Shown one piece after another: positions 2 through 12,697 of a DNA stretch of 12,697 nucleotides. Numbering within the stretch: position 1 is the stretch's first letter; each line of letters starts with the position of its first letter. Under the pieces are notes generated by a model, which had not been told where the DNA came from, did not search any database, and was given only the letters and a program-made list of their open reading frames with translations. Source of the stretch: Candidatus Methanomethylicia archaeon (GTDB lineage Archaea > Thermoproteota > Methanomethylicia > Nezhaarchaeales > B40-G2); assembly GCA_029259155.1 (NCBI GenBank), contig JAPDJI010000036.1:1-12697 (forward strand), written 5' to 3'. The position numbers were made by a program, and so were the translations under genes.

Positions 2-241
2 ACCGCCCTGGCGAGGCTGCTGATGCCAAAGGCGAGCATAAGCCTCGGATGCATGCGCCCCAGAGTCGAGAGGAAGCAGCTCGAAACCCTATGCCTCAAA
101 GCCGGAGCCGATAGGATTGTTCTCCCCTCAAAAGCTGCAAGGAGCTGGGCTGAGGCTCACAGCCTAAAGATCCTAGAGCTGGACGGCTGCTGCTCCATAC
201 CAGAGGAGCTGGAGGATAGAGCCATTCGATGCCTTCCATAA
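2..241 (+). CDS. C-terminal part of a radical SAM protein, biotin-synthase-like archaeal family (5'-truncated by window)
   Basis: Frame is open from base 2: TALARLLMPKASISLGCMRPR...AGADRIVLPS...DGCCSIP, stop TAA at 239-241. 'ARLLMP..I.LGCMRP', 'AG.D.I..P' and a terminal 'CCS' resemble the C-terminus of archaeal BioB-like radical SAM proteins. The CxxxCxxC motif would lie outside the window. Confidence 0.65.
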   Translation, partial: TALARLLMPKASISLGCMRPRVERKQLETLCLKAGADRIVLPSKAARSWAEAHSLKILELDGCCSIPEELEDRAIRCLP

Positions 242-242
242 G

Positions 243-259
243 GGTCGGTGTGCCAGCCG
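243..259 (-). repeat. Displaced copy of the RNase P RNA 3' end (att-like direct repeat, left copy)
   Basis: GGTCGGTGTGCCaGCCG (243-259) versus GGTCGGTGTGCCgGCCG (11921-11937): 16/17 identical, same orientation, intergenic, 1 nt after the upstream stop codon. Confidence 0.8.
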
Positions 260-467
260 ATACTAAACTCTGAAGGTGGATTACATGAGAATATTTGGTT
301 AATGGGGATGTTAGTGGTGGCTTTATTAGTCTTAGTATCATAGGCTACGGTGAAATTCTGTTACTGAGAGATCATGCATCAACTCGATTCTATGCACACT
401 AACCTTCAACCACTTCCAAAACCAGGGAAAGCAACAGAAGAATTCTTCAGACCCAGAGGCCTATGCG

Positions 468-1421
468 TTAAATTGGATAAGCGCCGCATACCCTGCAGTG
501 TATTGCATCCTCTGAGACATTTGAATGACACATCGGGCAGATCTTCCTCGTAGATCCATCTGGATGGGGTGGACCGAAGAGACTTCGATAGATCTGATAG
601 TAGAATATCTGCTCTTGGCTCCTAATCCTTACGCCATCTTCCATGAGATATCTCTCCCTCAACTCCTTGAAATCATTGATGTTATCCTCAAAGATTTTTG
701 GCAGGGTCGATGTTCCACATCCACCCTCTATTGGAACCTTAACCCTCCAAACTATCTCCTCTGGAAGCAGATCCTCAAAGGCGACTCGAAGAATATACTT
801 CCCATATCTTCTCCCATCTCTAAATCCCACTCTGAATTTTGAGTCAAGTCTCTCGGCGAACGACATCACCTCCTGATCGAGGTAGGGCTGCCTCACCTCC
901 ATCCCCAGCGCGTCTCCAAGCTTGACGGATGAGAAGCTCATCCTCCCCCAAAGCCTCCTAATTTTGAGGTCGAGTTCATCGAGGCTGAGGTTGTAGAGGA
1001 AGCTGTATCCCGCAAAAAGCTCATCTCCCCCATCCCCAGTCATGACGAGTTCGCCGCCGATATCCCTCGCATATCTTAAGGCCATGTAGATGGCGGCGCT
1101 GTTGCGCACCTCCATGGGGTCGAAAGTCTTCAACACCCTTATGGTCTCCCTGATGCCCTCCTTAAGCTCATCTAGGTCGAAGAGGAGAATTAGATGCTCG
1201 ATATCGAGGAAATCTGCAACGATTCTCGCATACTTCAAATCATCGCATGGAGAATCTTTGAGGCATACGGATATGGCTTTCAAATCCCCCATCTTCGAGG
1301 CGAGTAGGGCTATTATGCTTGAATCCAATCCCCCTGAGAGGAAGATCGTATCCCCAAGATTTCTCTCAACCGCAGCTATGAGAACATCTCTAAGCTCCCT
1401 ACATAGCTCCTCGGGAACCAT
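468..1421 (-). CDS. Asparagine synthetase-like protein: synthetase (PP-loop) domain only, no glutaminase domain, C-terminal Zn ribbon
   Basis: 317 aa with LSGGLDSS PP-loop, TGDGGDELFAGY, EVRQPYLD and KYILRVAFEDLLPEEIVWRVK motifs of Asn_synthase. No N-terminal Cys Ntn domain. Ends in CPMC-x10-CRVC. Confidence 0.85.
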   Translation of the reverse strand: MVPEELCRELRDVLIAAVERNLGDTIFLSGGLDSSIIALLASKMGDLKAISVCLKDSPCDDLKYARIVADFLDIEHLILLFDLDELKEGIRETIRVLKTFDPMEVRNSAAIYMALRYARDIGGELVMTGDGGDELFAGYSFLYNLSLDELDLKIRRLWGRMSFSSVKLGDALGMEVRQPYLDQEVMSFAERLDSKFRVGFRDGRRYGKYILRVAFEDLLPEEIVWRVKVPIEGGCGTSTLPKIFEDNINDFKELRERYLMEDGVRIRSQEQIFYYQIYRSLFGPPHPDGSTRKICPMCHSNVSEDAIHCRVCGAYPI

Positions 1422-1478
1422 GGCTTTACGGCCATGGAAATTTTACATAATCCATCTTCTATAAGGCACTCGGAATAG

Positions 1479-2153
1479 ATGAGGGTGATAGTCTCATGGA
1501 GTGGGGGTAAGGATAGCTGCCTATCCCTATATAGGGCTTTGAGGCGTGGCCTCAAACCCGTCTCCCTCCTAAATATCGCAACGCATGGGGGTGGAGGCTT
1601 CAGGGTTCACGGCCTAAACCCTGATATAATCATCGATCAGGCTAAGGCCCTCGATTTGCCCATAGTTCAGAGAGTGGCAGAGTGGAAGCGATACGAGGAG
1701 GTCTTCAAGGAAGCCGCTAAGGAGATTAGGGATAGGCTGGGGGCTGAGGGGATAGTCTTCGGAGACATCTTACTTGAGGAGCATAGAAAGTGGGGGTTAA
1801 AGATCTGCGAGGAACTCGGCATGGAGGCCCTCTCACCCCTCTATGGGGAGGATGAGAGGAAGCTTATGATGGAGTTTATAGAGTCCGGATTCAAGGCTGT
1901 AGTGGTTTGTGTTAGGGCTGATATGCTACCCGAGGAGCTCCTCGGGAGGATGCTGGATGAGGATTTGGTTAAAGCCCTTGAGGATATCGGAGTCGACCTC
2001 TGCGGCGAATACGGTGAATACCATACCCTCGTCTTAGACGGCCCCATATTCAAAAGGCGGATAGAGATCGTTGAGAGCGATGTCGAGCGTATCCCCCCAG
2101 ACTACGCCGTCTTGAATATACTTAGATGGAGATTGGTCGACTCTGGGGTTTAG
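1479..2153 (+). CDS. DUF71/COG2102 diphthine-ammonia-ligase-like ATP pyrophosphatase (likely the B12-associated subfamily)
   Basis: 224 aa with SWSGGKDS PP-loop, VFGDI..EEHR.W and DLCGEYGEYHTLVLDGPIFK signature. The SWSGGKDS/FGDI variant and the cob gene context argue against the housekeeping Dph6. Confidence 0.85.
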   Translation: MRVIVSWSGGKDSCLSLYRALRRGLKPVSLLNIATHGGGGFRVHGLNPDIIIDQAKALDLPIVQRVAEWKRYEEVFKEAAKEIRDRLGAEGIVFGDILLEEHRKWGLKICEELGMEALSPLYGEDERKLMMEFIESGFKAVVVCVRADMLPEELLGRMLDEDLVKALEDIGVDLCGEYGEYHTLVLDGPIFKRRIEIVESDVERIPPDYAVLNILRWRLVDSGV

Positions 2154-2863
2154 TATATCCTCCTCACCCTATATCTCCGCTTAATCCCATGATGGAGTAT
2201 CGACACCTTCCTCAGATGTCTCTCCGCCCTCCTCCTCGCCTCCTCAAGCTCGGCTATTGTCGGCCTCCTATATACATCATCCTCCATGGGTATGTAGCCA
2301 TCTATTCTATATGGAATATCCTCATCAACGTCAGCTATGAATTCAGCTATCCTCTCGATCTCATCCGACTCGATCAATCCTGGCACAAGTATGCTCTCAG
2401 CCCTCAGCTCAACCCCGAGGTTCCAATACCTCCTAAAGTTTATGAGAACCCTCTTAGATCCGCTTACTCCAGTGAATCTTCTAAATATCTCCTCGGTCAC
2501 GGCTTTGATGCTGACGCATGCGGAGTCTATGAGGCCTTCCTCCACGAGTTTATAGCCGTTCGTCAATAGTATGTTATATGAGTTGAAGGCCCTCTTCAAC
2601 TCCTCGGCGAGTTTATAGAATTCCACATCCACAGTAGGCTCAAAACCCATGTAAACAACCCTCTCGAAGTCGAGGCCCTTAACGATGTTGAGGGCCTCCT
2701 CAGCCGATAATGGGGGTCTCACGTCCCCAGAGGAGTCTGTTAGATGTATATCTATTGGATGATTTCTGCAGATGCATCCATGACATGAGAAGTTACATGG
2801 CCCATCGAAGTATATGTATAGCTCCCTCAATGTAGGCGCATATGTTATGTGATATATCCCCAT
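2150..2863 (-). CDS. Radical SAM protein, PFL-activating-enzyme-like, unknown function
   Basis: 237 aa with N-terminal CNFSCHGC (CxxxCxxC), MGFEPT (GGEP-like), TNGY, VSIKA and LVPG motifs. SD-like GAGGTTGAG and an ATATATA element lie upstream on the - strand. Confidence 0.85.
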   Translation of the reverse strand: MGIYHITYAPTLRELYIYFDGPCNFSCHGCICRNHPIDIHLTDSSGDVRPPLSAEEALNIVKGLDFERVVYMGFEPTVDVEFYKLAEELKRAFNSYNILLTNGYKLVEEGLIDSACVSIKAVTEEIFRRFTGVSGSKRVLINFRRYWNLGVELRAESILVPGLIESDEIERIAEFIADVDEDIPYRIDGYIPMEDDVYRRPTIAELEEARRRAERHLRKVSILHHGIKRRYRVRRIY

Positions 2864-2915
2864 CTCAACCTCAATTTTCAGCTCCCCTATATATCTCTGA
2901 TGAGGCCTCTATCCA

Positions 2916-3929
2916 TCACCCAGGGAGGACTCTATAGATCAGCGTCATGACAGCCGCAACCAGTATTAGATGGAGGATCATGGAGCATGACACTATCTTC
3001 ACTGCGTCATATACCCTCCGCCAATCTAATGCGTTGATAACGTCTCCAAGGGTGTAATGCCCTACCTTCTCCAGCCTCACCCCGAGGGCTCCAGCCATGG
3101 CCGACATTGGATGGCCGGCGTTTAGGCTTTCGGTCTTGTCGTGATCCCTCCTCCATATCCTCCACGCCCCCCTCCAATCATATCCGAGTAGAAGGGATGA
3201 GAAGATTATGTAGAGGGCTGACATCCTCGCCGGTAGATAGTTTATAACGGTGTCGAGCTTCGCAGAGAACCATCCTAACCTCTCAAACTCTCTGCTCCTG
3301 AATCCGACAGCCCCATCGAGGGTGTTAACCATCCTCTGTAGGTATGGTCCCATCACTCCGAGGAGTGGATAGTATAGTAGTGGGGAGACCATTCCATCGA
3401 CGAGGCTCTCGGCGAGGGACTCGATTGCAGCTGATAGTGTATGCTCCTCATCCAGGGAGTATACATCCCTCCTAACAATCTGCTGGGTCCAGAATCTCGC
3501 ATCATCCCAATTCCCGTTCTTAACGCTATCGCCGATCCTAATCCCTATCTCGATCAGCAGTCTAATGGAGAAGCTCAGCTTCAAGATGTAAGCCGCCACC
3601 AAGGGCCAGAGCATTGAGGCGATCCAGGAATCAGCCATGGAGAGGAGGATCAACAGGGCTATAAGTGGGGCTATATGAGTCAGGATGCATAGGAGGGCTA
3701 ACGCCACGCCGAAAGCCCTACCTGCATAGGGCTTTGCAAGTCTTCTAGCCATGTGGAAGCAGGTGTGAACTGGATGGATTCTAAGCATTATGCCTCGGTG
3801 ATAGGGGTAGAGGAGGTCTAGGATTACTGAGAGCAACAATGCGATTAGGCCTATGGTAAGGCTGGATGGATAGATTGCCCTTAGAAACATGGGGAGGATG
3901 CCTAATCCTCGAATCGATGTCTCGATCAT
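2916..3929 (-). CDS. cbiB: Adenosylcobinamide-phosphate synthase CbiB
   Basis: Membrane protein with HPV, AAIESLAESLVDGMVSPLLY, VNTLDGAVG, AKLDTVINYLPAR and SLNAGHPMSAMAGALGVRLEK.G.Y.LG motifs. The true start may be a slightly downstream Met. Confidence 0.93.
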   Translation of the reverse strand: MIETSIRGLGILPMFLRAIYPSSLTIGLIALLLSVILDLLYPYHRGIMLRIHPVHTCFHMARRLAKPYAGRAFGVALALLCILTHIAPLIALLILLSMADSWIASMLWPLVAAYILKLSFSIRLLIEIGIRIGDSVKNGNWDDARFWTQQIVRRDVYSLDEEHTLSAAIESLAESLVDGMVSPLLYYPLLGVMGPYLQRMVNTLDGAVGFRSREFERLGWFSAKLDTVINYLPARMSALYIIFSSLLLGYDWRGAWRIWRRDHDKTESLNAGHPMSAMAGALGVRLEKVGHYTLGDVINALDWRRVYDAVKIVSCSMILHLILVAAVMTLIYRVLPG

Positions 3930-3933
3930 GGCT

Positions 3934-4704
3934 CTACATTAAAATCGATGTTAGGGCGGCTGGGATTATTAGGGTGGCGGCCTTCGTCAGCTCATAGCAG
4001 AATCCGAGGACATCCCCATTCACGAATCCCAGAGTCCTATGAGACTTCGCCCTCGTATAGGTCACTATGAGGATCATGGCGGCGACCATCGTCAACCCAT
4101 AGGGTGTAAGGCCTCCTCCAAAACTGAGGATTAAGATGAGGATGAATCCAAATGAAATTGAGTTTACCACAGCCCCCACCCCACGCTTCGACTCAACTAT
4201 GAAGACTCTACCCAATCCATCATAGCCTGGAGGGGTGGATGAGATGGCGAGGAGATACATCGATTCGGAGGCCAAGACGTGGGAGAGTATGATTATCTGC
4301 CACCACAACTCATCCACGAGCTCTAAGAGGGAGGAGTATGAGACCATTATTAGCAGGGTTGTGGAGGCGATTGCGGCGGCTCCCCTCTCCGGCTTCTTCA
4401 TAATCCTAAGCATATCCTCCCCCCTCCTTCCAGAGGCTATGGCGTCGGATAAGTCGGCGAATCCATCGAGATGATTGAATCCCGTGATGAGATGGGAGAG
4501 CACGAGTATTATTGCGGCCCTGACATAAGTCGGCGCATCGAGGAGCATGGGGGATACGGCCACCAACCCCTCGATCAAGCCTATTATCGGGGATAGGTAG
4601 AAGAACTTGGAGGCGAGGGAGAGGTCGTGGATGCCGGTTGGTATTATCGTCAGGAATGATAGGAGGGCCATGAAGCCCTTAACCCCTTCCCGAAACCTCT
4701 TCAA
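3934..4704 (-). CDS. cobS: Adenosylcobinamide-GDP ribazoletransferase (cobalamin synthase) CobS
   Basis: LSFLTIIP, TGFNHLDGFADLSDA, RIMK, GLG and LGFVNGDVLG motifs; hydrophobic. The start is uncertain: TTG 4704 or ATG 4671 is more plausible than the ORF-track start at 4749. Confidence 0.93.
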   Translation of the reverse strand: MKRFREGVKGFMALLSFLTIIPTGIHDLSLASKFFYLSPIIGLIEGLVAVSPMLLDAPTYVRAAIILVLSHLITGFNHLDGFADLSDAIASGRRGEDMLRIMKKPERGAAAIASTTLLIMVSYSSLLELVDELWWQIIILSHVLASESMYLLAISSTPPGYDGLGRVFIVESKRGVGAVVNSISFGFILILILSFGGGLTPYGLTMVAAMILIVTYTRAKSHRTLGFVNGDVLGFCYELTKAATLIIPAALTSILM

Positions 4705-5737
4705 GGGCTCTAACCAGGAGATCGTTCTCCTCACCCCTCCTAACCGCAACCCTCGTATGGAAACTCGTTAAGCCATGGAAGGTATGCGCCGATCTCACAT
4801 GGATTCCATAGTCCCTTAACAGCCTCTCTCTAAGGATTTTGGATTCTATCCATGGATGCTTCAGTAGCAGGAAGTTCGCCTTAGACCTATATACGTGGTA
4901 GCCGATTCTTGAGAGTGATCCCCTCAGCCGGCTCCTCTCCTCTGCGATATATCTACATGTCCTCCTGATGAAACTCCACAGCTCATCCCTGAATTTGATC
5001 AGTGTCTCCCTGAAGGCGGTCTCCGCTATTGAGCCTATATTCCAGGTTGGCCTAATCGCCTCCATCCTCCCTACTATATCCCTCGATGACGTATAGGCGA
5101 ATCCAAGCCTCAGACCTGGAACGCCGAAGACCTTTGTAAAGCTCCTCACAACGATGACGTTATCCAATTCCACTCCGAGGAGGCCCCTAAAACCACTCAG
5201 CTCCGCATATACCTCGTCGACTATAAGCCATGAGAAATCCTCAAGCTCATCCACCAACTCCAGTAGGGCATCCTCCCCCACAAGCAACCCAGTTGGATTA
5301 TTCGGATTCGTAACCACTATAACCGAGTTCATTTCGCCCTTAGCCTCCTCAACCACCTCGCCGACATCGAATTTGAAAGCTCCATCCACCTCCCGCATCA
5401 ATATATGCCTACACTCGGCTCCGATCCCCCAGCATAGGAGGTCGTAGTCTCCATAGCTCGGGCTCACGACGAGCAGTTTCCTCGGCCTCAAGGCGATTAT
5501 CGCCAGGCTTAGGGCCTCTGAGGCTCCATTACAGGCTATTATGGAGTTCTCATCGATGTCGTAGAAGTATGATATGGCGGCCTTAAGCCCAGAGTAATTC
5601 GAGTCGGGATAAGACCTATACACCCCAGCTCTACAGCAGCGGGCTATCTCCTCCTCGAGGAGTTTTGGAGGGGCGAGGGGATTGACGTTCACGCTGAAGT
5701 CTATTACGCCCTCGATTCCCCCTCCATGAATCCTCAT
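4679..5737 (-). CDS. cobD: L-threonine-O-3-phosphate decarboxylase CobD (PLP-dependent class I/II aminotransferase fold)
   Basis: HGG, DFSVNVNP, NGASE, NPNNPTG, VDEVY and RSFTKVFGVPGLRLG (PLP lysine) motifs. Lies between cobY and cobS with an ATGA overlap with cobY. Confidence 0.9.
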   Translation of the reverse strand: MRIHGGGIEGVIDFSVNVNPLAPPKLLEEEIARCCRAGVYRSYPDSNYSGLKAAISYFYDIDENSIIACNGASEALSLAIIALRPRKLLVVSPSYGDYDLLCWGIGAECRHILMREVDGAFKFDVGEVVEEAKGEMNSVIVVTNPNNPTGLLVGEDALLELVDELEDFSWLIVDEVYAELSGFRGLLGVELDNVIVVRSFTKVFGVPGLRLGFAYTSSRDIVGRMEAIRPTWNIGSIAETAFRETLIKFRDELWSFIRRTCRYIAEERSRLRGSLSRIGYHVYRSKANFLLLKHPWIESKILRERLLRDYGIHVRSAHTFHGLTSFHTRVAVRRGEENDLLVRALEEVSGRG

Positions 5738-6288
5738 CGAATCAACTCCTCACTCAATCTCAGCTCATCCCATGTATCTATATCAAGAAGCTCTGGAAAT
5801 TCATCCATCACCACCTCACCCCAGCTCCAGTCATCCCCCTTTAGAAGTGATATGCCAACTGGAGCTCTCAGGGGAGGCCTTCGCAGCTCCCTTGGGAAGC
5901 TACTTCTATCAACTATGAGTGTTATGAGGCTCTCCCTCGATCTCCAGGCTCTCTCAAGGAATTGGCTTAGAAGCCCCGCTGTTATGAAGGGCATGTCCAC
6001 TGGCAGGAGGAGTATTGGCTTATCAACTCTGGATGCGACATATCCCAGATCACTTGGATATCCATCGCCCCTGGTCTTGATTATGGGAATCCCTCTATCG
6101 ATGCACCATCGCTCAGTTAGCGGCGTATGCCTCGATGGAGCTATGTAGAGCTCGCCATCCAATCCCTTCACCGCCTCCACGACATATTCGATTAGGGGTT
6201 TACCTCGAAGCCTCAGCAGAGCCTTCTCAACTCCACCCATCCTCTCGCCCTTTCCACCGGCCATCACCACGATCCTTAGGGTCGTCAT
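5734..6288 (-). CDS. cobY: Adenosylcobinamide-phosphate guanylyltransferase CobY (MobA-like NTP transferase)
   Basis: MAGGKGERMGGVEKALL, T.G.GY..DL, PVDMP and DIDTWDEL motifs. Translationally coupled (ATGA) to both neighbours in a cob operon. Confidence 0.85.
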   Translation of the reverse strand: MTTLRIVVMAGGKGERMGGVEKALLRLRGKPLIEYVVEAVKGLDGELYIAPSRHTPLTERWCIDRGIPIIKTRGDGYPSDLGYVASRVDKPILLLPVDMPFITAGLLSQFLERAWRSRESLITLIVDRSSFPRELRRPPLRAPVGISLLKGDDWSWGEVVMDEFPELLDIDTWDELRLSEELIR

Positions 6289-7403
6289 CGCCCACCTCCC
6301 AGATGTCTGTCATAGATTCTGCTTAGGATGGATCCTATCAGGGAGGCGAGGATGTCATCCATGAACATGGGCTTATCCCCAAACTCCCTCAGCTCCCCCT
6401 TATTGGAGTCGATCCAGTAATATGCGAAGAGGGCTCTCCACCCATTTATGTAGAGGGCTAAGGTTATTCCGAGGAGTTCATCTGCGAGTATCCTCTTAGA
6501 GTCTCCGAGGTATTCCTTCCGGCTCAACCCTGGTAGAGCTCCAGATAGACCATGCCAATCAAGATTACGGGCTGCGAGAGCTATGGCCCAGATATTTGGA
6601 TCTCTCAGGAGACTCCTAAGCTCGGCCTCAACCTCCCGCTTAACCTCATCCTCAGATAAACCTGGGATTGGAGCCCTACGATATATATTGGATGCAGCAT
6701 CCCTGATCCACTCCATATCGACGCCGAAGATATCGCTAAACCTCTCATCCATCCCCAGGCTCTCGATTCCCTTGGAGATTATCGCCTCATAAACGAGTTT
6801 AGCGGCCTCAGATCCTATCGGGGTGGCTGGCCCCCCATAGGGCTCCTCCTCCACCCCATCCATGCTCGATGCTATCACTATGGCATCCGTCGCAGTTGCA
6901 TACACCCTACCCAGATTATATCCCCTTGAGAGAGCCAAATCGACTAGCGCTAAGGTCTTCGCACCGCTGACGACCTCGGCGAGGTCGATGAAGGCGTTAT
7001 CCCTTAGAGGCTTATCCACGAATAGGAGGATGTTTATCGTCGCCGCCCTCCTCCTTGGCTCCTCGGCTCCGATGGAGATTGGAGGGGTAAGCCCGACGCT
7101 GGCCATCACCATCATCTTAATCGGGGAGTGAATCCACATCTCAACGTTTTCACGCACAACATCTACAGCGGTTAGGAACACCGCTGAGCTCCTAAGGGGG
7201 AGCTCCAGCCTCTCTAAGAGTCTCTCAGCGTAGCCAACTGGGTTTGGATCATTGAAGTCCGGTTCAACCCTATGGAATACTACATGGGTTAACTCCCTGA
7301 ATCCGCCTGCTATGATCGTTGAGGATAGGGCTCTCACCCTCCCCCCAAACTCTATTATTAGGGTGTTCTCATCCCCTATCCTCTTCGTCAACCTCAATTC
7401 CAT
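6285..7403 (-). CDS. cbiS: Bifunctional CbiZ (adenosylcobinamide amidohydrolase) - CobZ (alpha-ribazole-phosphate phosphatase) fusion, CbiS-like
   Basis: The N-domain is CbiZ-like (ALSS...GG, VFLTAVD, TINI, AK..AL, ATATDAI, GPAT.IG). The C-domain is CobZ-like (L.DPN, ILADELLG...A.YI.G..ALF.Y...D..K, PMFMDD). Confidence 0.85.
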   Translation of the reverse strand: MELRLTKRIGDENTLIIEFGGRVRALSSTIIAGGFRELTHVVFHRVEPDFNDPNPVGYAERLLERLELPLRSSAVFLTAVDVVRENVEMWIHSPIKMMVMASVGLTPPISIGAEEPRRRAATINILLFVDKPLRDNAFIDLAEVVSGAKTLALVDLALSRGYNLGRVYATATDAIVIASSMDGVEEEPYGGPATPIGSEAAKLVYEAIISKGIESLGMDERFSDIFGVDMEWIRDAASNIYRRAPIPGLSEDEVKREVEAELRSLLRDPNIWAIALAARNLDWHGLSGALPGLSRKEYLGDSKRILADELLGITLALYINGWRALFAYYWIDSNKGELREFGDKPMFMDDILASLIGSILSRIYDRHLGGGR

Positions 7404-8496
7404 CGCCCCTCAACCTCTCATACTCCTCGTATATGGCGTTGAGAAGTCTCTCATGGGTTAGGCCCTTAATCGTTGTAGCAGCTATACTCGTCCCACCTGC
7501 TCCAACTCCCTCCTTCACATATCCCCTCTCATAGTATCTCAGCCCCTCATAGGGAGACTTAGAGAAGTTGATGTCATAGGCAACAACGGGTGCATCTGGC
7601 TGAATCATCTCTACAAGCCCTATTAGATCGGATGAATCATCCTCGATCAGCCATCTAGTTGTCCCTATCATAACCCTCCCCTTCAGGGATATGCCGATGT
7701 GCTTGACGATGGCGAGGACGGCGGCCATCTGGGTTCCACCGCCGAGAATGATAGATGCATCCCCCTCCAAGGCTCCAGCTAGGAAGCCGGCCATGGATAC
7801 ATGCACCGGATCACCCAGCCTAGCCACTGCCTCAAAGGGGTCGACGCTCGGCTCACCCATCCTCTCCAATCCCTCCCCGACGATCTTCTCCTTGAGGACG
7901 TGTGGATTGCTGGGAGAAGCACTGCTAACCATCCCCCAGGCATCGTATCCAAGCCCCACTAGAATCCCCAGCGCCGTGGTAGTTCCACCTGGAATACTCT
8001 CCCCAAGTATCATCAGCTCGGTTAGGTGGGTGAACACCCTCGCTAAGGCCCTACTCTCCTCGAATAGGCTTCTCGCTACGTCGTAGGGGAGGGCCTCACC
8101 GAGGTCTATCCTCCCCCCAACCATCCTACTTGGAAGCGTCACATGTGGTATCCTCGGCTTCACATAGGACCCCGTGTCGACGACGATGAAGGGGATATTG
8201 GAGGATTTGATGGCGGCTCTGGTGATCAGGGCTGGCGTCGGTATCCCCTCTGGGGTGACAGGTATCTGATTGATGGTTAAGGGTCTCCCATAAAATAGGT
8301 ATTCCACATCGACGGCTGGGGTGTAAAGCGTCAGCTCCGGTGTGGCTCCAGCTACGCTCACCCCTGGTATGGTTGAGGTCTCCGTCGATCCGATGAAGTA
8401 TACGCCGAGAATCCGTCTATCCATAGCCGATGAGAGGATTCTCCTCGCCTCATCTCCACGATATGCGTAGATGAGGTGGCTCCTTGGCTTTGCCAT
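7369..8496 (-). CDS. cobT: Archaeal nicotinate-nucleotide:base phosphoribosyltransferase CobT (MJ1598/TIGR00303-like)
   Basis: GSTETSTIPGVSVAGA, TP.G.PTPALIT, GESIPGGTTTA, SSAS..NP..LK, GDP, GGGTQM and YERGYVKEGVGAGG motifs. ATG 8496 is preferred over TTG 8535 because the latter would overlap the TATA box. Confidence 0.88.
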   Translation of the reverse strand: MAKPRSHLIYAYRGDEARRILSSAMDRRILGVYFIGSTETSTIPGVSVAGATPELTLYTPAVDVEYLFYGRPLTINQIPVTPEGIPTPALITRAAIKSSNIPFIVVDTGSYVKPRIPHVTLPSRMVGGRIDLGEALPYDVARSLFEESRALARVFTHLTELMILGESIPGGTTTALGILVGLGYDAWGMVSSASPSNPHVLKEKIVGEGLERMGEPSVDPFEAVARLGDPVHVSMAGFLAGALEGDASIILGGGTQMAAVLAIVKHIGISLKGRVMIGTTRWLIEDDSSDLIGLVEMIQPDAPVVAYDINFSKSPYEGLRYYERGYVKEGVGAGGTSIAATTIKGLTHERLLNAIYEEYERLRGDGIEVDEEDRG

Positions 8497-8520
8497 CTTG
8501 GATGGATTATCCATCCAAGA
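8496..8520. promoter_or_regulatory. Perfect inverted repeat (11-3-11), candidate transcription-factor operator
   Basis: TCTTGGATGGA-TTA-TCCATCCAAGA lies between the cobT start codon and the TATA box in the divergent intergenic region. Confidence 0.65.
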
Positions 8521-8530
8521 ATTTAAATAT
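8521..8530. promoter_or_regulatory. TATA box, probably shared by the divergent cobT and btuF transcripts
   Basis: ATTTAAATAT reads TTTAAATA on + and TATTTAAAT on -. It lies about 25-30 nt from both ATG 8496 (-) and ATG 8558 (+), the spacing expected for leaderless archaeal mRNAs. Confidence 0.65.
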
Positions 8531-8557
8531 TCCAAAATCCCTTAACCTCTGAGGCTT

Positions 8558-9955
8558 ATGAGGCGTATAATCCTTCCAATCTTGCTGTTGGTCCTCGGCC
8601 TCATCCCGTTGGGTTCAGCATTTGCACAGGGGGAGGGAGTAACGGTCATAGACGACTTTGGGAGGGAGGTTCTGATACCCCATGAGCCAAATAGGATCGT
8701 CTCAATAGCCCCAAGCATAACTGAGACCCTATTCGCTCTAGGCCTTGGGGATAAGGTGGTTGGTGTTACTAGATACTGCAACTATCCATCCGAGGTTCTG
8801 GAGGGGGTTGGTAAGGGGGAGATTACCGTGATAGGAGGATTCATCGATCCAAGTCTGGAGAAGATAATCGAGTTGAACCCCGACCTCGTGATAGGCCATA
8901 ACCTTCTAAATCCAGAGTTCGTTGCGAAGATCGAGGACGCTGGAATACCTATCATCATCGTCAAGACCTCTGAGACGATTGAAGGAATCTACGACGACAT
9001 CAGATTGATTGGGAAAGCGTGCTGGGCTGAGGAGGAGGCGTCAAAATTAGTTGAGGAGCTTAAGTATAAGATATCATATTGGGAGAAACAAGTTGAAGGC
9101 GTTGAGAGGGTTGATGTAGCAGAGATAGCGTGGGTGAACCCCCTCTGGGTGGCTGGGAATGGAACATACATCAACGATGTCATCGAGCATGCTGGAGGGA
9201 GAAATGTATTCGCAGATAGAAGTGGATGGGCTTCAATAAGTGATGAGGAGCTCGTTGAGAAGGATCCAGAATACCTCATAGTTCCATATAGACATGGAGA
9301 GGAGCTCATCTATGATGGAGTTATAGAGATGAAGGGGAGGGGTTTGATACATGGAGAGATCATCCCAATAGATCCAGATATAATAAGCAGGCCTGGGCCG
9401 AGGGTTGCTATACTCTTCGAGGAGGTTGTCAAAGCCCTACATCCAGATGTTTGGAGCAGGGTCTACACAGTTGAGAATCTAATAGCTCCAAGGAGAGCGA
9501 TCGTCGGAGACCTCGTAACAGTATATGTTCAGGTGAAGAACGATGGAATGGTCTCTGGGGAGAAGCTCGTGGAACTAAACATCGATGGAAAAACACTCTC
9601 AAAAACCATCAGCCTTGAACCAGGGGAGGAAAAACTACTCAACTTCACATTCGTCATCGAGGAGAAGGGAACATGTAAGGTTAGTGCTAAATCCCTATCG
9701 AGGTCTATAGAGGTATCACCGACAAGTGAGGAGATCATGAATGAGCTGAGGAGATCACTTGAGGAATACATGAAAAGCTATATAAATGAGAACATCTCAC
9801 CAACACTAACAGAATTGGAAAATGAAATATCTGAAATTGATAGACGAATGAGTTCACTTAACAACTTGACAACGGCCTCAATAACCCTCTCAGCCATAGC
9901 GATCATCATTTCCCTCGCCTCCCTAGCCTATGCGCTTAGGGTTAGGAAAACATAA
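8558..9955 (+). CDS. btuF: Corrinoid ABC transporter substrate-binding protein (BtuF-like) with extra Ig-like (CARDB-like) domain, coiled coil and C-terminal TM anchor
   Basis: Signal peptide ending AFA; P.RIVSIAPSITETLFALG.GDKVVGVT.YCNYP, SLEKII.LNPDLV and SRPGPR motifs of type III substrate-binding proteins. The C-terminal ~160 aa extension ends in a hydrophobic helix plus RVRKT. B12 specificity is inferred from context. Confidence 0.85.
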   Translation: MRRIILPILLLVLGLIPLGSAFAQGEGVTVIDDFGREVLIPHEPNRIVSIAPSITETLFALGLGDKVVGVTRYCNYPSEVLEGVGKGEITVIGGFIDPSLEKIIELNPDLVIGHNLLNPEFVAKIEDAGIPIIIVKTSETIEGIYDDIRLIGKACWAEEEASKLVEELKYKISYWEKQVEGVERVDVAEIAWVNPLWVAGNGTYINDVIEHAGGRNVFADRSGWASISDEELVEKDPEYLIVPYRHGEELIYDGVIEMKGRGLIHGEIIPIDPDIISRPGPRVAILFEEVVKALHPDVWSRVYTVENLIAPRRAIVGDLVTVYVQVKNDGMVSGEKLVELNIDGKTLSKTISLEPGEEKLLNFTFVIEEKGTCKVSAKSLSRSIEVSPTSEEIMNELRRSLEEYMKSYINENISPTLTELENEISEIDRRMSSLNNLTTASITLSAIAIIISLASLAYALRVRKT

Positions 9956-9970
9956 TAAGTTAGGTGGGCG

Positions 9971-11032
9971 ATGATTGAGGGGATTCAGGAAACATATGAA
10001 ACGGAACGTGGGGAGACTGGACTACTAGAGAAGAGACTACTTAAATGGAAGGCTACGCTAACATATCTAACCATCGGCTTAATTTTTACGATCATAGCAG
10101 CCACCGCGATAGGGCCGGTCTATATCCCTCCAGGTGAGATCATCTCAATAATTTCATATAGGATTGGATTCCGCATCGGAGGATTCAGCGAGACTCATAT
10201 GAGAATAATACTCCAGCTACGACTTCCAAGGATACTTCTCGGAGTCTTCGTCGGCATGGCACTATCCGTAGCTGGGGTTATGATGCAGGGATTATTTAGA
10301 AATCCATTGGCTGGGCCATATGTCCTCGGAGTCTCCTCTGGAGCTTCGCTTGGGGCGGCCCTATCCATAACCCTGCTACCCTCAATAATGGGGATATATA
10401 CAACTCCCATAGCTGCCTTCATCGGGGGTTTAACAGCGATATTCCTCGTCTACAACATCATAAAACTCTGCGGCAGATTCACTATTGAGGCCCTCCTACT
10501 CGCTGGGATAGCTGTGACATATCTATTCTCAGCTATACTCTCCATATTGATCTGGACCTTAAACAGGGATGCCCACAACATACTTCTATGGATTATGGGG
10601 GGATTATGGGGCGCCGATTGGCTTAAGGTTGAGATAATCGCCCCAATAATAATCACATTGATTCTCATATCCTATATATTCTCAAAAGACTTAAATGCAC
10701 TACTCCTTGGAGAGGAGACTGCTCAATCGATCGGTGTGGATGTTAAGTTTGTGGAGAGATCTCTACCTATCCTTGCATCCCTTATAACGAGTGCGGCAGT
10801 CTCCTTCTCTGGGGCGATAGGATTCATAGGGTTGATGATACCCCACATAATGAGGATGCTTGTAGGGCCGGATCATAGGATACTGATACCATCATCAGCC
10901 CTAGCCGGTGGGATATTCCTCGTTTGGGCCGATACCGCAGCGAGATGTCTAATGGAGCTCCCAGTTGGAGTCGTAACGGCGTTGACTGGAACACCATTCT
11001 TCATCTACCTATTGAGGAGGAGGCGTCCATGA
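9971..11032 (+). CDS. btuC: FecCD/BtuC-family ABC permease
   Basis: LRLPRILLG..VG.ALSVAG..MQGLFRNPLA.PY.LGVSSGA, LLLGEETAQSIG, G.IGFIGL.IPH and ELPVGVVTAL.G.PFF motifs. Confidence 0.92.
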   Translation: MIEGIQETYETERGETGLLEKRLLKWKATLTYLTIGLIFTIIAATAIGPVYIPPGEIISIISYRIGFRIGGFSETHMRIILQLRLPRILLGVFVGMALSVAGVMMQGLFRNPLAGPYVLGVSSGASLGAALSITLLPSIMGIYTTPIAAFIGGLTAIFLVYNIIKLCGRFTIEALLLAGIAVTYLFSAILSILIWTLNRDAHNILLWIMGGLWGADWLKVEIIAPIIITLILISYIFSKDLNALLLGEETAQSIGVDVKFVERSLPILASLITSAAVSFSGAIGFIGLMIPHIMRMLVGPDHRILIPSSALAGGIFLVWADTAARCLMELPVGVVTALTGTPFFIYLLRRRRP

Positions 11033-11868
11033 AGCTGGAAGTTGACAACATCCAATTCTACTATGAGGCCCGTAAGGTGCTCGATGAGATAAGCTTCAAG
11101 GCCGATGAGGGGGAGTTCATAGGATTAATCGGCCCAAATGGATCGGGGAAGACAACACTCCTAAGGATAATAGACGGCATTCTAAAACCCATCGTCGGCT
11201 CAGTTTATATAGATTGTAGGCGAATCTCAGAGCTCGATCCACGGGAGATCGCGAGGGAGATCGCAGTCGTCCCACAGATAGCCGATCTAAGCTTTGATCT
11301 AAAGGTTTTCGACATAGTTATGATGGGGAGATATCCATATCTTGATAGAATCTCCCTAGAGGGAGAGGTCGATGAGGAGAAGGTTAGATTTTGGATGAAG
11401 GTCACCAACACCCTACACCTCGCCGAGAGATCTATTAAGGAGATAAGCGGAGGTGAGAGACAGAGAGTATTTATCACAAGAGCCCTAGCGCAGGAGCCTA
11501 GAATTCTACTCTTAGATGAGCCGACATCAAACCTCGATATATGCTACAAAATAGAGATAATGAACCTCTTAAGAGCACTTGTTGATGAACTTAAGTTGAC
11601 GATCATCTGTGCAATCCACGACCTAAACCTTGCTGCGAGATATAGCGACAGGATCATCCTGATAAAGGATGGAAGGATAAAGAGTGTTGGAAAACCCATG
11701 GATGTCCTGACAAGGGATAATTTGAGGGAAGTTTTCAAGATCGATGCTAAGATAGAATATGATATGAACTCCAAAAGCCTCATAATAATCCCCCTCAAAA
11801 CAATCAATCAAGAATTAAATAATGGGCTGATCTTCTCCACATTGAAGAAGAATGTCCTAACTCAATGA
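11029..11868 (+). CDS. btuD: ABC transporter ATPase (BtuD/FecE family)
   Basis: Walker A GPNGSGKT, signature ISGGERQR, Walker B LLLDEPT and H-loop IHDLN. Start reassigned to ATG 11029 (ATGA overlap with the permease stop, GAGGAGG upstream). Confidence 0.92.
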   Translation: MKLEVDNIQFYYEARKVLDEISFKADEGEFIGLIGPNGSGKTTLLRIIDGILKPIVGSVYIDCRRISELDPREIAREIAVVPQIADLSFDLKVFDIVMMGRYPYLDRISLEGEVDEEKVRFWMKVTNTLHLAERSIKEISGGERQRVFITRALAQEPRILLLDEPTSNLDICYKIEIMNLLRALVDELKLTIICAIHDLNLAARYSDRIILIKDGRIKSVGKPMDVLTRDNLREVFKIDAKIEYDMNSKSLIIIPLKTINQELNNGLIFSTLKKNVLTQ

Positions 11869-11917
11869 AATCATTAGTTCGAGATGCCTCAGGAAGATGG
11901 TAATAAGGATCAACTTA

Positions 11918-12232
11918 AACGGTCGGTGTGCCGGCCGTAACCCACCTTCTGTTCTGGCGGCATTCCGCTGAACGGGCCACCCGGCGTCTCGGGCAGGACT
12001 CATCGACGCCTATTTGCCCTTCCACCCCGCGGGTCGGCCGTCTCACCCCATCCATCCACGTCCTCGACGCCTCATCGGCGTCTCATGGCCATCCTGTGGA
12101 TGGAGGTCTCGTCTCTGTTCCGGAGCCAGGGCTCTCACCCTGCGCCTCGCGGCGCCGCGGCCCTGCCTGGTGGGTGGAGTTTCCCCAAGCCCTCTCGGGG
12201 CTCGGAGGCCGCCCACCGGCTCACCGACCATT
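11918..12232 (-). ncRNA. rnpB: RNase P RNA, archaeal type A
   Basis: On the - strand: P1 AAUGGUCGGUG.GCCGG / CCGGC.CACCGACCGUU; CR-I GGGGAAACUCCACC pairs with CR-V AACAGAAGGUGGGUUA (P4 with bulged U); ACAGAGA and UGAGACGG conserved regions; P6 GGCAGG/CCUGCC; P15-P16 with GGU in L15. GC-rich, about 315 nt. Confidence 0.96.
11921..11937 (-). repeat. att-like direct repeat, right copy (within the rnpB 3' end)
   Basis: GGTCGGTGTGCCGGCCG matches 243-259 at 16/17 positions. Confidence 0.8.
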
Positions 12233-12250
12233 AGAATTGGGGGCTGAGAT

Positions 12251-12270
12251 GTTTATAAACCTTGATTTTT
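12251..12270 (-). promoter_or_regulatory. BRE/TATA promoter of rnpB
   Basis: The - strand reads AAAAATCAAGG-TTTATAAA, with TTTATAAA at 12259-12252, about 20-27 nt upstream of the predicted RNA 5' end. Confidence 0.75.
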
Positions 12271-12591
12271 GTCCATCGTTTTTTGAAGGATATTTTTGAT
12301 GATGTCTTGTTCCATGTTTTCTGTTCATAAAGTTTTTTTAAATATCTATGGACAGAATACAACAAATAAATGTTTCTATACATTATGTTAATATACACAC
12401 TTATTTTTTTCTAAAAGTGTGGGTTTATAGTTAACATCATATTAAAATAATAGCAATATAGAATAACTAAAATATTTTTAAATAAGAAACACAAGAAAGA
12501 AAAAGAGTTAAAAGGTCATAGATATTATTTCATTTTAGCACCCTGAAAAATAATATTCGTGGTTTTAACAAGAGTTAAGGAGCGTTTTTAT

Positions 12592-12697
12592 ATGGATTTC
12601 CTTAGACTAACGTGGCAAGATATCGAAAATATGTGTGACAGAATTACCGAAGAAATCAAAAAACGAGGATACAAAATAGATGTGATAGTTGCCGTAT
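12592..12697 (+). CDS. N-terminus of a type I (purine, Hpt/Gpt-like) phosphoribosyltransferase, 3'-truncated by window
   Basis: MDFLRLTWQDIENMCDRITEEIKKRGYKIDVIVAV..., matching the 'W.DI......A..I......D.IVA(I/V)xRGG' start of COG2236-like PRTases. AAGGAG SD at 12577-12582. Only 35 codons are visible. Confidence 0.7.
   Translation, partial: MDFLRLTWQDIENMCDRITEEIKKRGYKIDVIVAV

Follow-up and report, generated by a model that had tools for sequence, protein, structure and literature searches.

A probable vitamin B12 salvage island at the 3' end of the gene for RNase P RNA in Bathyarchaeia

Site-specific integration into the 3' ends of transfer RNA (tRNA) and transfer-messenger RNA (tmRNA) genes is a textbook rule. 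In Firmicutes, integrase-less elements flanked by attachment (att) sites, the cis-mobilisable elements (CIMEs), are known at targets that are either protein genes or tRNA genes. In archaea, cobinamide salvage by way of CbiZ, with uptake through BtuFCD, involves BtuFCD, CbiZ, CbiB, CobD, CobY, CobS, CobT and CobZ. In tRNA/tmRNA islands, as set out in the available sections of PMC4383910, the sequence of the element regenerates the gene, a displaced direct 3' fragment marks the far end and tandem arrays are formed. For the SSV-type 'suicidal' integrases of the pT26-2 family the sections available of PMC7253208 describe an att site within the integrase frame, so that integration splits the gene, and tRNA genes as targets. 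Here we describe contig JAPDJI010000036.1 (the window, 12,697 nt analysed over its whole length), in which a vitamin B12 salvage cluster lies between a full-length RNase P RNA gene (rnpB) and a degenerate direct copy of the last 21 nt of that gene.

This locus is like the Islander-type tRNA/tmRNA islands with their tyrosine integrases in that the 3' end of a structural RNA gene is the target, the gene is regenerated, a direct fragment is displaced and tandem arrays are found, and the rnpB integrases of relatives nest among tRNA-adjacent ones. It differs in its target, RNase P RNA, and in that the island of the window has no integrase. The gene set is the same as in archaeal CbiZ salvage, here as one insertion at rnpB that is rare among the Bathyarchaeial genomes searched. 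The first-pass annotation, made from the sequence alone, had read the whole cluster as an island integrated into the 3' end of rnpB, and this reading is supported by the repeat, by an insertion-free form of the site, by a clade of integrases located at rnpB in relatives and by arrays of core copies in the same relatives. We give a probability of about 70% to an old site-specific integration at the rnpB core that brought or assembled the B12 genes and whose recombination module was later lost.

The two copies of the repeat, GGTCGGTGTGCCAGCCG at 243-259 (+) and GGTCGGTGTGCCGGCCG at 11921-11937 (+), are in direct orientation and identical in 16 of 17 positions, the single mismatch being the one already reported in the first-pass annotation; its count of 18/20 with the AA flank included was also reproduced (240-259 against 11918-11937). 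A fuller description of the repeat is obtained by comparing 243-263 with 11921-11941, the last 21 nt of rnpB (the core, GGTCGGTGTGCCGGCCGTAAC), with 18 of 21 positions identical. RNase P RNA was found on the minus strand at 12224..11926 (Rfam RF00373, 183.8 bits against a gathering score of 84), and since the match extends over the full model (1-288) the gene is intact and its 3' end regenerated. Helix P1 continues to ~11921, so that the right copy is the actual 3' terminus of rnpB. Searches with the 17-mer at up to 3 mismatches gave three matches in the window, the third being the 5' strand of P1, against 0.04 expected (200 shuffles). The 21-mer GGTCGGTGTGCCGGCCGTAAC, also at up to 3 mismatches, gave two matches, 243-263 (3 mismatches) and 11921-11941 (0 mismatches), against a mean of 0.00 in 200 shuffles. 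In the 1.55-Mb binned genome the 17-mer (R at position 13, up to 2 mismatches) is confined to these two sites. A radical-SAM/BATS gene fragment (2-241) ends with its stop codon 1 nt before the left copy, whose similarity to the core stops at the same point as the segment shared by the arrays of relatives. No tRNA was found in the window and an Rfam scan of positions 1-700 gave no match at E<=10, so the left copy lies outside any other known RNA. The mismatch does turn a G-C pair of P1 into G-U, as had been proposed and as base-pairing confirms, but this compatibility is irrelevant because the left copy belongs to no RNA gene.

The window is the entire contig C29 of a 47-contig bin that has two RNase P RNA genes, the one described here and another on C26 (G000:C26:11109-11414). 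The C26 gene is 79% identical to those of the family relatives of the bin, whereas that of the window finds none above 73% there. The tetranucleotide correlation of the window with the large contigs of the bin is 0.507, against values above 0.8 for all but two of the other contigs larger than 5 kb. In addition, the bin has its own B12 cluster on C12, with the same architecture and 31-49% amino-acid identity to that of the window. The second rnpB, the low correlation and the second B12 cluster together indicate that the contig was placed in the wrong bin; its source lies in the Bathyarchaeia and not in the genome of the bin. Twenty-two genome records contain the exact 23-mer from the end of rnpB; 20 of these are named as Bathyarchaeota or Bathyarchaeia, and in two of the 22 the rnpB is 97-98% identical to that of the window. 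The remaining two records, L162 and L178, stand in bins labelled Desulfobacterales and Patescibacteria and are probably further mis-binned contigs; L178 has a full-length rnpB match. Mis-binning also explains why the search for rnpB in 41 relatives of the bin, 62 genomes of its class and a 401-genome sample of its phylum gave a best match of no more than 76% identity. None of 14 rnpB neighbourhoods from bin-side relatives had genes of the window beside rnpB, and a search of genome contigs with the CobT-like protein found no relative.

Parts of the window were detected in 20 public runs from 16 studies, all of them vent or sediment metagenomes. Contigs from four of these runs (X1-X4) were aligned to the window, and parts left uncovered were not counted as absence (the X4 piece listed starts at 457). 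In X1 one contig of 582 nt matches 12167-11920 with 0 differences, continues with 116 other letters and then matches 129-4 with 18 differences. Its joint (129->11920) skips 11790 nt, and one contig of X3, from a different study, has the joint 129->11921. In the window position 129 is 113 nt from the left core, against the 116 letters in the X1 contig, so that in these contigs no more than a few bases lie between the diverged end of the radical-SAM gene and the 3' end of rnpB. The uninterrupted site is therefore present in relatives, in one assembled contig each from two studies, and these contigs correspond to the empty site predicted in the first-pass annotation, with ~11.79 kb skipped between the radical-SAM end and the rnpB 3' end. 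The right junction is supported by an X2 contig of 2866 nt that covers 9370-12233 with 28 differences and by the metagenome contig L128, which matches 11134-12355 at 94.7%. Positions 1-424 have contig depth in X1, X3 and X4. A circle junction was absent among the contigs listed. Among the core-bearing loci a radical-SAM neighbour near rnpB was seen in L126 and L165 only, and in L123 still another neighbour adjoins rnpB.

The 23-mer matched 86 metagenome stretches, and 80 of these 86 loci were examined. Two exact copies on the same strand were present in nine of the 80. In 38 loci the 23-mer stands at the head of a stretch that blastn aligns to the rnpB of the window over 270 nt or more; in the remaining loci it is followed by 29-200 nt of rnpB or by nothing detectable, and contig ends cut some of these. 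When the 21-mer was searched at up to 3 mismatches, 33 of 100 records examined had two to five direct copies of the core. The core is also found in 23 of the 61 Bathyarchaeial genomes related to G404, seven of which have at least two copies, while a reversed-pattern control gave 0/61. Each of the six records scanned with Rfam (L184, L185, L186, L124, L128 and L123) has a single full RF00373, and the extra core copies are thus fragments. An exact match to the 21-mer was not found in viral contigs. We conclude that the 21-nt core is a recurrent attachment site in this lineage, and the use of the rnpB 3' end as att target, put forward from the window alone, is matched by direct core arrays with adjacent integrases.

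Three records illustrate the arrays. L184 (genome G407) has cores at 225, 1574 and 7221 with a common segment of 22 nt, and beyond the core its two distal copies resemble each other and not rnpB; the 5.6-kb unit codes for winged-helix proteins, a HSDR_N-domain protein and an integrase beside rnpB. L185 (G405:C110:15000-33000) has five core copies delimiting a tandem array of four units of 0.8, 2.9, 3.9 and 5.1 kb next to rnpB, whose cargo includes a PIN protein, Lrp/AsnC regulators with multihaem cytochromes, and alcohol dehydrogenases. The sole integrase of this array is degraded and the other units are integrase-less. In L186 some distal copies consist of the core only, with 2 and 3 mismatches, and resemble the left copy of the window. 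Two related units of L185 each have a Lrp/AsnC regulator together with multihaem cytochromes, that is, respiratory genes in att-flanked cassettes. Small core-bounded units of ~0.5, 0.8 and 0.86 kb encoding PIN or VapB recur in L077, L086, L121, L140, L186 and others, with 82-98% identity between different contigs. Three contigs of one genome (G404:C80, C96 and C189) each end in or at the rnpB 3' region, so assemblies break at the att repeats.

Full-length rnpB is abutted by tyrosine integrase genes in L124, L184/L196 (G407), L197 (G430) and L198 (G426), and the integrases adjoining the core in L124 and L184 match PF00589 (E 1.6e-15 and 2e-16). The rnpB-type integrase is nearest to XerA structures (PDB 4a8e and 5hxy, E about 2e-10), and its 89 bits are below the XerA equivalog cut-off of 220. 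On the integron model TIGR02249 it scores 66 bits against a cut-off of 265, and the boundaries of the units are copies of the rnpB end. Homologues at E<=1e-20 are present in 21 of the 61 relatives. The three closest (100, 73 and 49% identity) abut full rnpB, and among 26 other homologue loci scanned 23 have a tRNA gene in the flanks and three have no RNA gene. In a tree of 24 rows, built without six short rows and one overlapping locus, a branch (86/80; present in 88% of bootstrap trees) separates the four rnpB-adjacent integrases, which lie among tRNA-adjacent ones. They look like a clade that switched its target from tRNA genes to rnpB.

The gene layout in L184, the one array examined for it, recalls the SSV-type integrases, also of archaeal hosts. 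The integrase frame (6303-7268) is open through the core and has no start codon on the integrated side, and an in-frame ATG is found in both distal arms (225-266 and 1574-1621), 7 or 9 codons ahead of the core (MSQRSGF or MSEQGKTGL, followed by VTAGTPT). The likeness is one of layout; by sequence the protein is nearest to XerA. Furthermore, the N-terminal piece has only 7-9 residues plus 7 core codons, and the target is rnpB, in contrast to the tRNA targets given in the available sections of PMC7253208. In L124 the frame across the core differs from that of L184. In the window a minus-strand frame of 81 codons started by ATG (341->96) runs through the core remnant, read there as VSAGTPT, and is in the frame used by the L184 integrase across its own core (VTAGTPT). 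This may be what is left of the start of a split integrase, or a coincidence; there is no integrase body in the window.

These observations would fit the following course of events. In the ancestor the radical-SAM gene and rnpB would have been convergent, the stop codon of the former lying directly against the 3' terminus of rnpB. A circular element whose attP contained ~21 nt of the same sequence as the 3'-terminal 21 nt of rnpB would have been recombined with the rnpB core by a tyrosine integrase, the 3' end of rnpB (11921-11941) being rebuilt from the copy of the element and the original 3' end displaced by 11.7 kb, next to the radical-SAM stop (243-263). The window segment would have entered by this route with the B12 genes aboard as cargo. 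The inserted DNA would correspond today to a complete corrinoid uptake and cobinamide-salvage set, with BtuFCD predicted to act in uptake, CbiZ-CobZ, CbiB, CobD and CobY in cobinamide salvage, and CobS and CobT in the final assembly steps. Later decay would have removed the integrase, added three substitutions to the displaced core and left a methyltransferase relic near it. The present lack of an integrase, the three substitutions in the distal core and the frameshifted relic nearby are signs of decay, and the island is probably old, decayed, fixed and immobile.

In this group the cargo appears to be accessory. None of the 61 relatives yielded the CobT-like protein and only one (G437) the CbiB family, and the cluster of G437 is ruled out as the source of the island by its 30-42% amino-acid identity. 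A search of five genomes, among them the two whose rnpB is 97-98% identical to that of the window, did not find the DNA of the island.

Several facts weigh against the integration that we favour. A tyrosine integrase within the island is a feature of the elements of relatives and not of the window, where no integrase, excisionase or other mobility gene is present among the 12 open reading frames (ORFs) of 260-11920, and where tblastn with two rnpB-type integrases gave nothing better than E 1. The stop codon of BtuD is 52 nt from the core, precisely where the integrase of relatives sits. The tetranucleotide correlation of the island with contigs of the nearest Bathyarchaeial genomes, 0.87-0.90, equals that of those contigs among themselves, and this native-like make-up gives no mark of foreign DNA. 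The verified elements belong to other genera, and their arms are unlike those beside the cores of the window. No piece bridging the left junction (241-468) is among the contigs listed, and the empty form was seen in assembled contigs, not reads, its 116 intervening letters being known by length only. Finally, in L126 and G404:C96 (L188) the radical-SAM gene and rnpB are separated by 4.9 kb with other genes (a DUF6754 protein, three unknown ORFs and an amidohydrolase; L126:2698-7573) and no core remnant is present, a third arrangement that leaves the ancestral state uncertain.

The main rival, which we consider unlikely, is that 243-263 is the scar of an older and unrelated small element and that the B12 cluster was never cargo of an element, having arrived by homologous exchange via the conserved flanks or by native rearrangement. 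Core-flanked scars of 0.5-0.9 kb are indeed common in relatives, the region from the radical-SAM gene to rnpB has several forms in close relatives, and a scar would sit well with the native-like composition, with the lack of mobility genes and with a methyltransferase relic of chromosomal type near the remnant. It fits badly with the interval itself, inside which no further degenerate core is found at up to 7 mismatches; together with an insertion-free form that lacks precisely this interval, this makes it behave as one unit bounded by two cores, and core-bounded cargo units without integrase are known in other arrays.

A chance repeat within ordinary chromosomal DNA, the skipping contigs being an unrelated deletion or the gene order of another species, is strongly disfavoured. 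The window does have other imperfect repeats of 17-25 nt and the island is without mobility genes, but the 18/21 match has an expectation of 0.00 in 200 shuffles, it lies 1 nt after the stop codon and exactly at the junction of the empty form with rnpB, and its position and extent coincide with those of the core that bounds the elements of relatives. Equally improbable is an assembly artefact, a chimera with the radical-SAM end and the remnant wrongly joined to the cluster, as might be feared in a mis-binned contig with a chimeric-looking right end (345 nt) and no listed bridge over 241-468: the copies share at most 12 consecutive identical bases, which is not enough to cause a mis-join through shared k-mers, the remnant has 3 differences from the true core and is thus not a collapsed repeat, the right junction recurs in X2 and L128, and contigs of X1, X3 and X4 cover 1-424.

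Going beyond integration as such, one may ask how a unit without integrase could move. By analogy with the CIMEs, the unit of the window is bounded by att sites, has no integrase of its own and is placed in or beside tandem arrays at a single target. It is conceivable, though doubtful, that a dedicated XerA-like clade, whose gene spans attP and whose target switched from tRNA to RNase P RNA, captures and stacks integrase-less cargo units bounded by the 21-nt rnpB core and perhaps mobilises them again in trans. Examples of such units would be B12 salvage here and, elsewhere, multihaem cytochromes with Lrp regulators, alcohol dehydrogenases and PIN/VapB pairs.

Table 1. Coordinates of the features of the window and the matches on which their assignment is based.
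Feature	Position	Strand	Evidence
3' end of radical SAM/BATS-domain gene, host flank	2..241	+	BATS match weak (E 0.0063)
Displaced degenerate rnpB 3' core (putative distal att remnant), GGTCGGTGTGCCAGCCGATAC	243..263	+	18/21 to core
Frameshifted S-adenosylmethionine (SAM)-dependent methyltransferase relic	363..470	+	77% identity over 119 aligned columns, inside a 262-aa Methyltransf_11 ORF on G404:C152
Asparagine-synthase-like amidotransferase, synthetase domain only	468..1421	-	PF00733, E 1.3e-44
Dph6-like ATP pyrophosphatase	1479..2153	+	PF01902, E 1.9e-53; NCBIfam TIGR03679 below cut-off
Radical SAM protein	2150..2863	-	PF04055, E 8.5e-10
CbiB/CobD adenosylcobinamide-phosphate synthase	2916..3929	-	PF03186, E 6e-71
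CobS cobalamin-5'-phosphate synthase	3934..4749	-	PF02654, E 4.3e-38
CobD-type threonine-phosphate decarboxylase (class I/II aminotransferase fold)	4679..5737	-	PF00155; TIGR01140 231.8 bits, below cut-off 290.55
CobY-like nucleotidyltransferase	5734..6288	-	PF12804, E 5.5e-20; NF045495 72.5 bits, below cut-off
CbiZ amidohydrolase fused to CobZ-like alpha-ribazole phosphatase (CbiS-like)	6285..7403	-	PF01955, E 7.9e-41; NF038002 241.7 bits against cut-off 250
Archaeal-type CobT phosphoribosyltransferase	7369..8535	-	TIGR00303 338.4 bits, above cut-off 240; PF02277 weak
BtuF-like substrate-binding protein with CARDB domain	8558..9955	+	PF01497, E 1.2e-30; PF07705
BtuC-like ATP-binding cassette (ABC) permease	9971..11032	+	PF01032, E 1.3e-93
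BtuD-like ABC ATPase, last island gene	10924..11868	+	PF00005, E 3.5e-31
Intact 21-nt att core, last 21 nt of rnpB	11921..11941	+	Same 21-mer bounds array units in L184, L185 and L186
rnpB, full length	11921..12230	-	RF00373 at 11926-12224; P1 extension to 11921/12230 by base-pairing
AT-rich right contig end, outside island	12352..12697	.	GC 0.29

The 12 ORFs between the two copies all belong to metabolic or transport families (Table 1), and the family matches bear out the earlier description of the interval as filled by B12 uptake and salvage genes and their immediate neighbours. A full-length Radical_SAM+BATS ORF next to an LplA gene in L126 has a C-terminus that shares 80% amino-acid identity with the translation of the left flank. 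The frame of the methyltransferase relic is broken by a 1-nt gap, and its counterpart on G404:C152 is intact. At the other end of the island, BtuD is 98% identical in amino acids to the BtuD of L128, which likewise adjoins rnpB. The right end of the contig differs from four of four close relatives, which have another common gene there, and contig depth is 0 over 12297-12697 in X1, X3 and X4; positions 12352-12697 probably result from chimeric assembly at the contig end. The B12 cluster of the window and the bin's own (G000:C12:700-12700) both enclose a Dph6-like ATP pyrophosphatase and a radical SAM protein (1479-2863 in the window), which hints at a conserved role of these proteins in corrinoid handling.

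No report of rnpB or RNase P RNA as an integration site was found in full-text literature searches, where rnpB was met only as a marker or in gene lists, and supplements and island databases could hold cases; rnpB as a target is likewise unmentioned in the available sections of PMC10848311, PMC12424338 and PMC7253208. This essential ribozyme gene appears to be a new target class for integration of the tRNA/tmRNA type, with its own integrase clade. Island finders restricted to tRNA and tmRNA genes would miss the elements at rnpB. For the Bathyarchaeia, abundant and uncultured archaea of sediments, the site would be a mappable hotspot for accessory genes, at which a complete corrinoid scavenging pathway and, in relatives, respiratory cytochromes may be gained or lost as single units.

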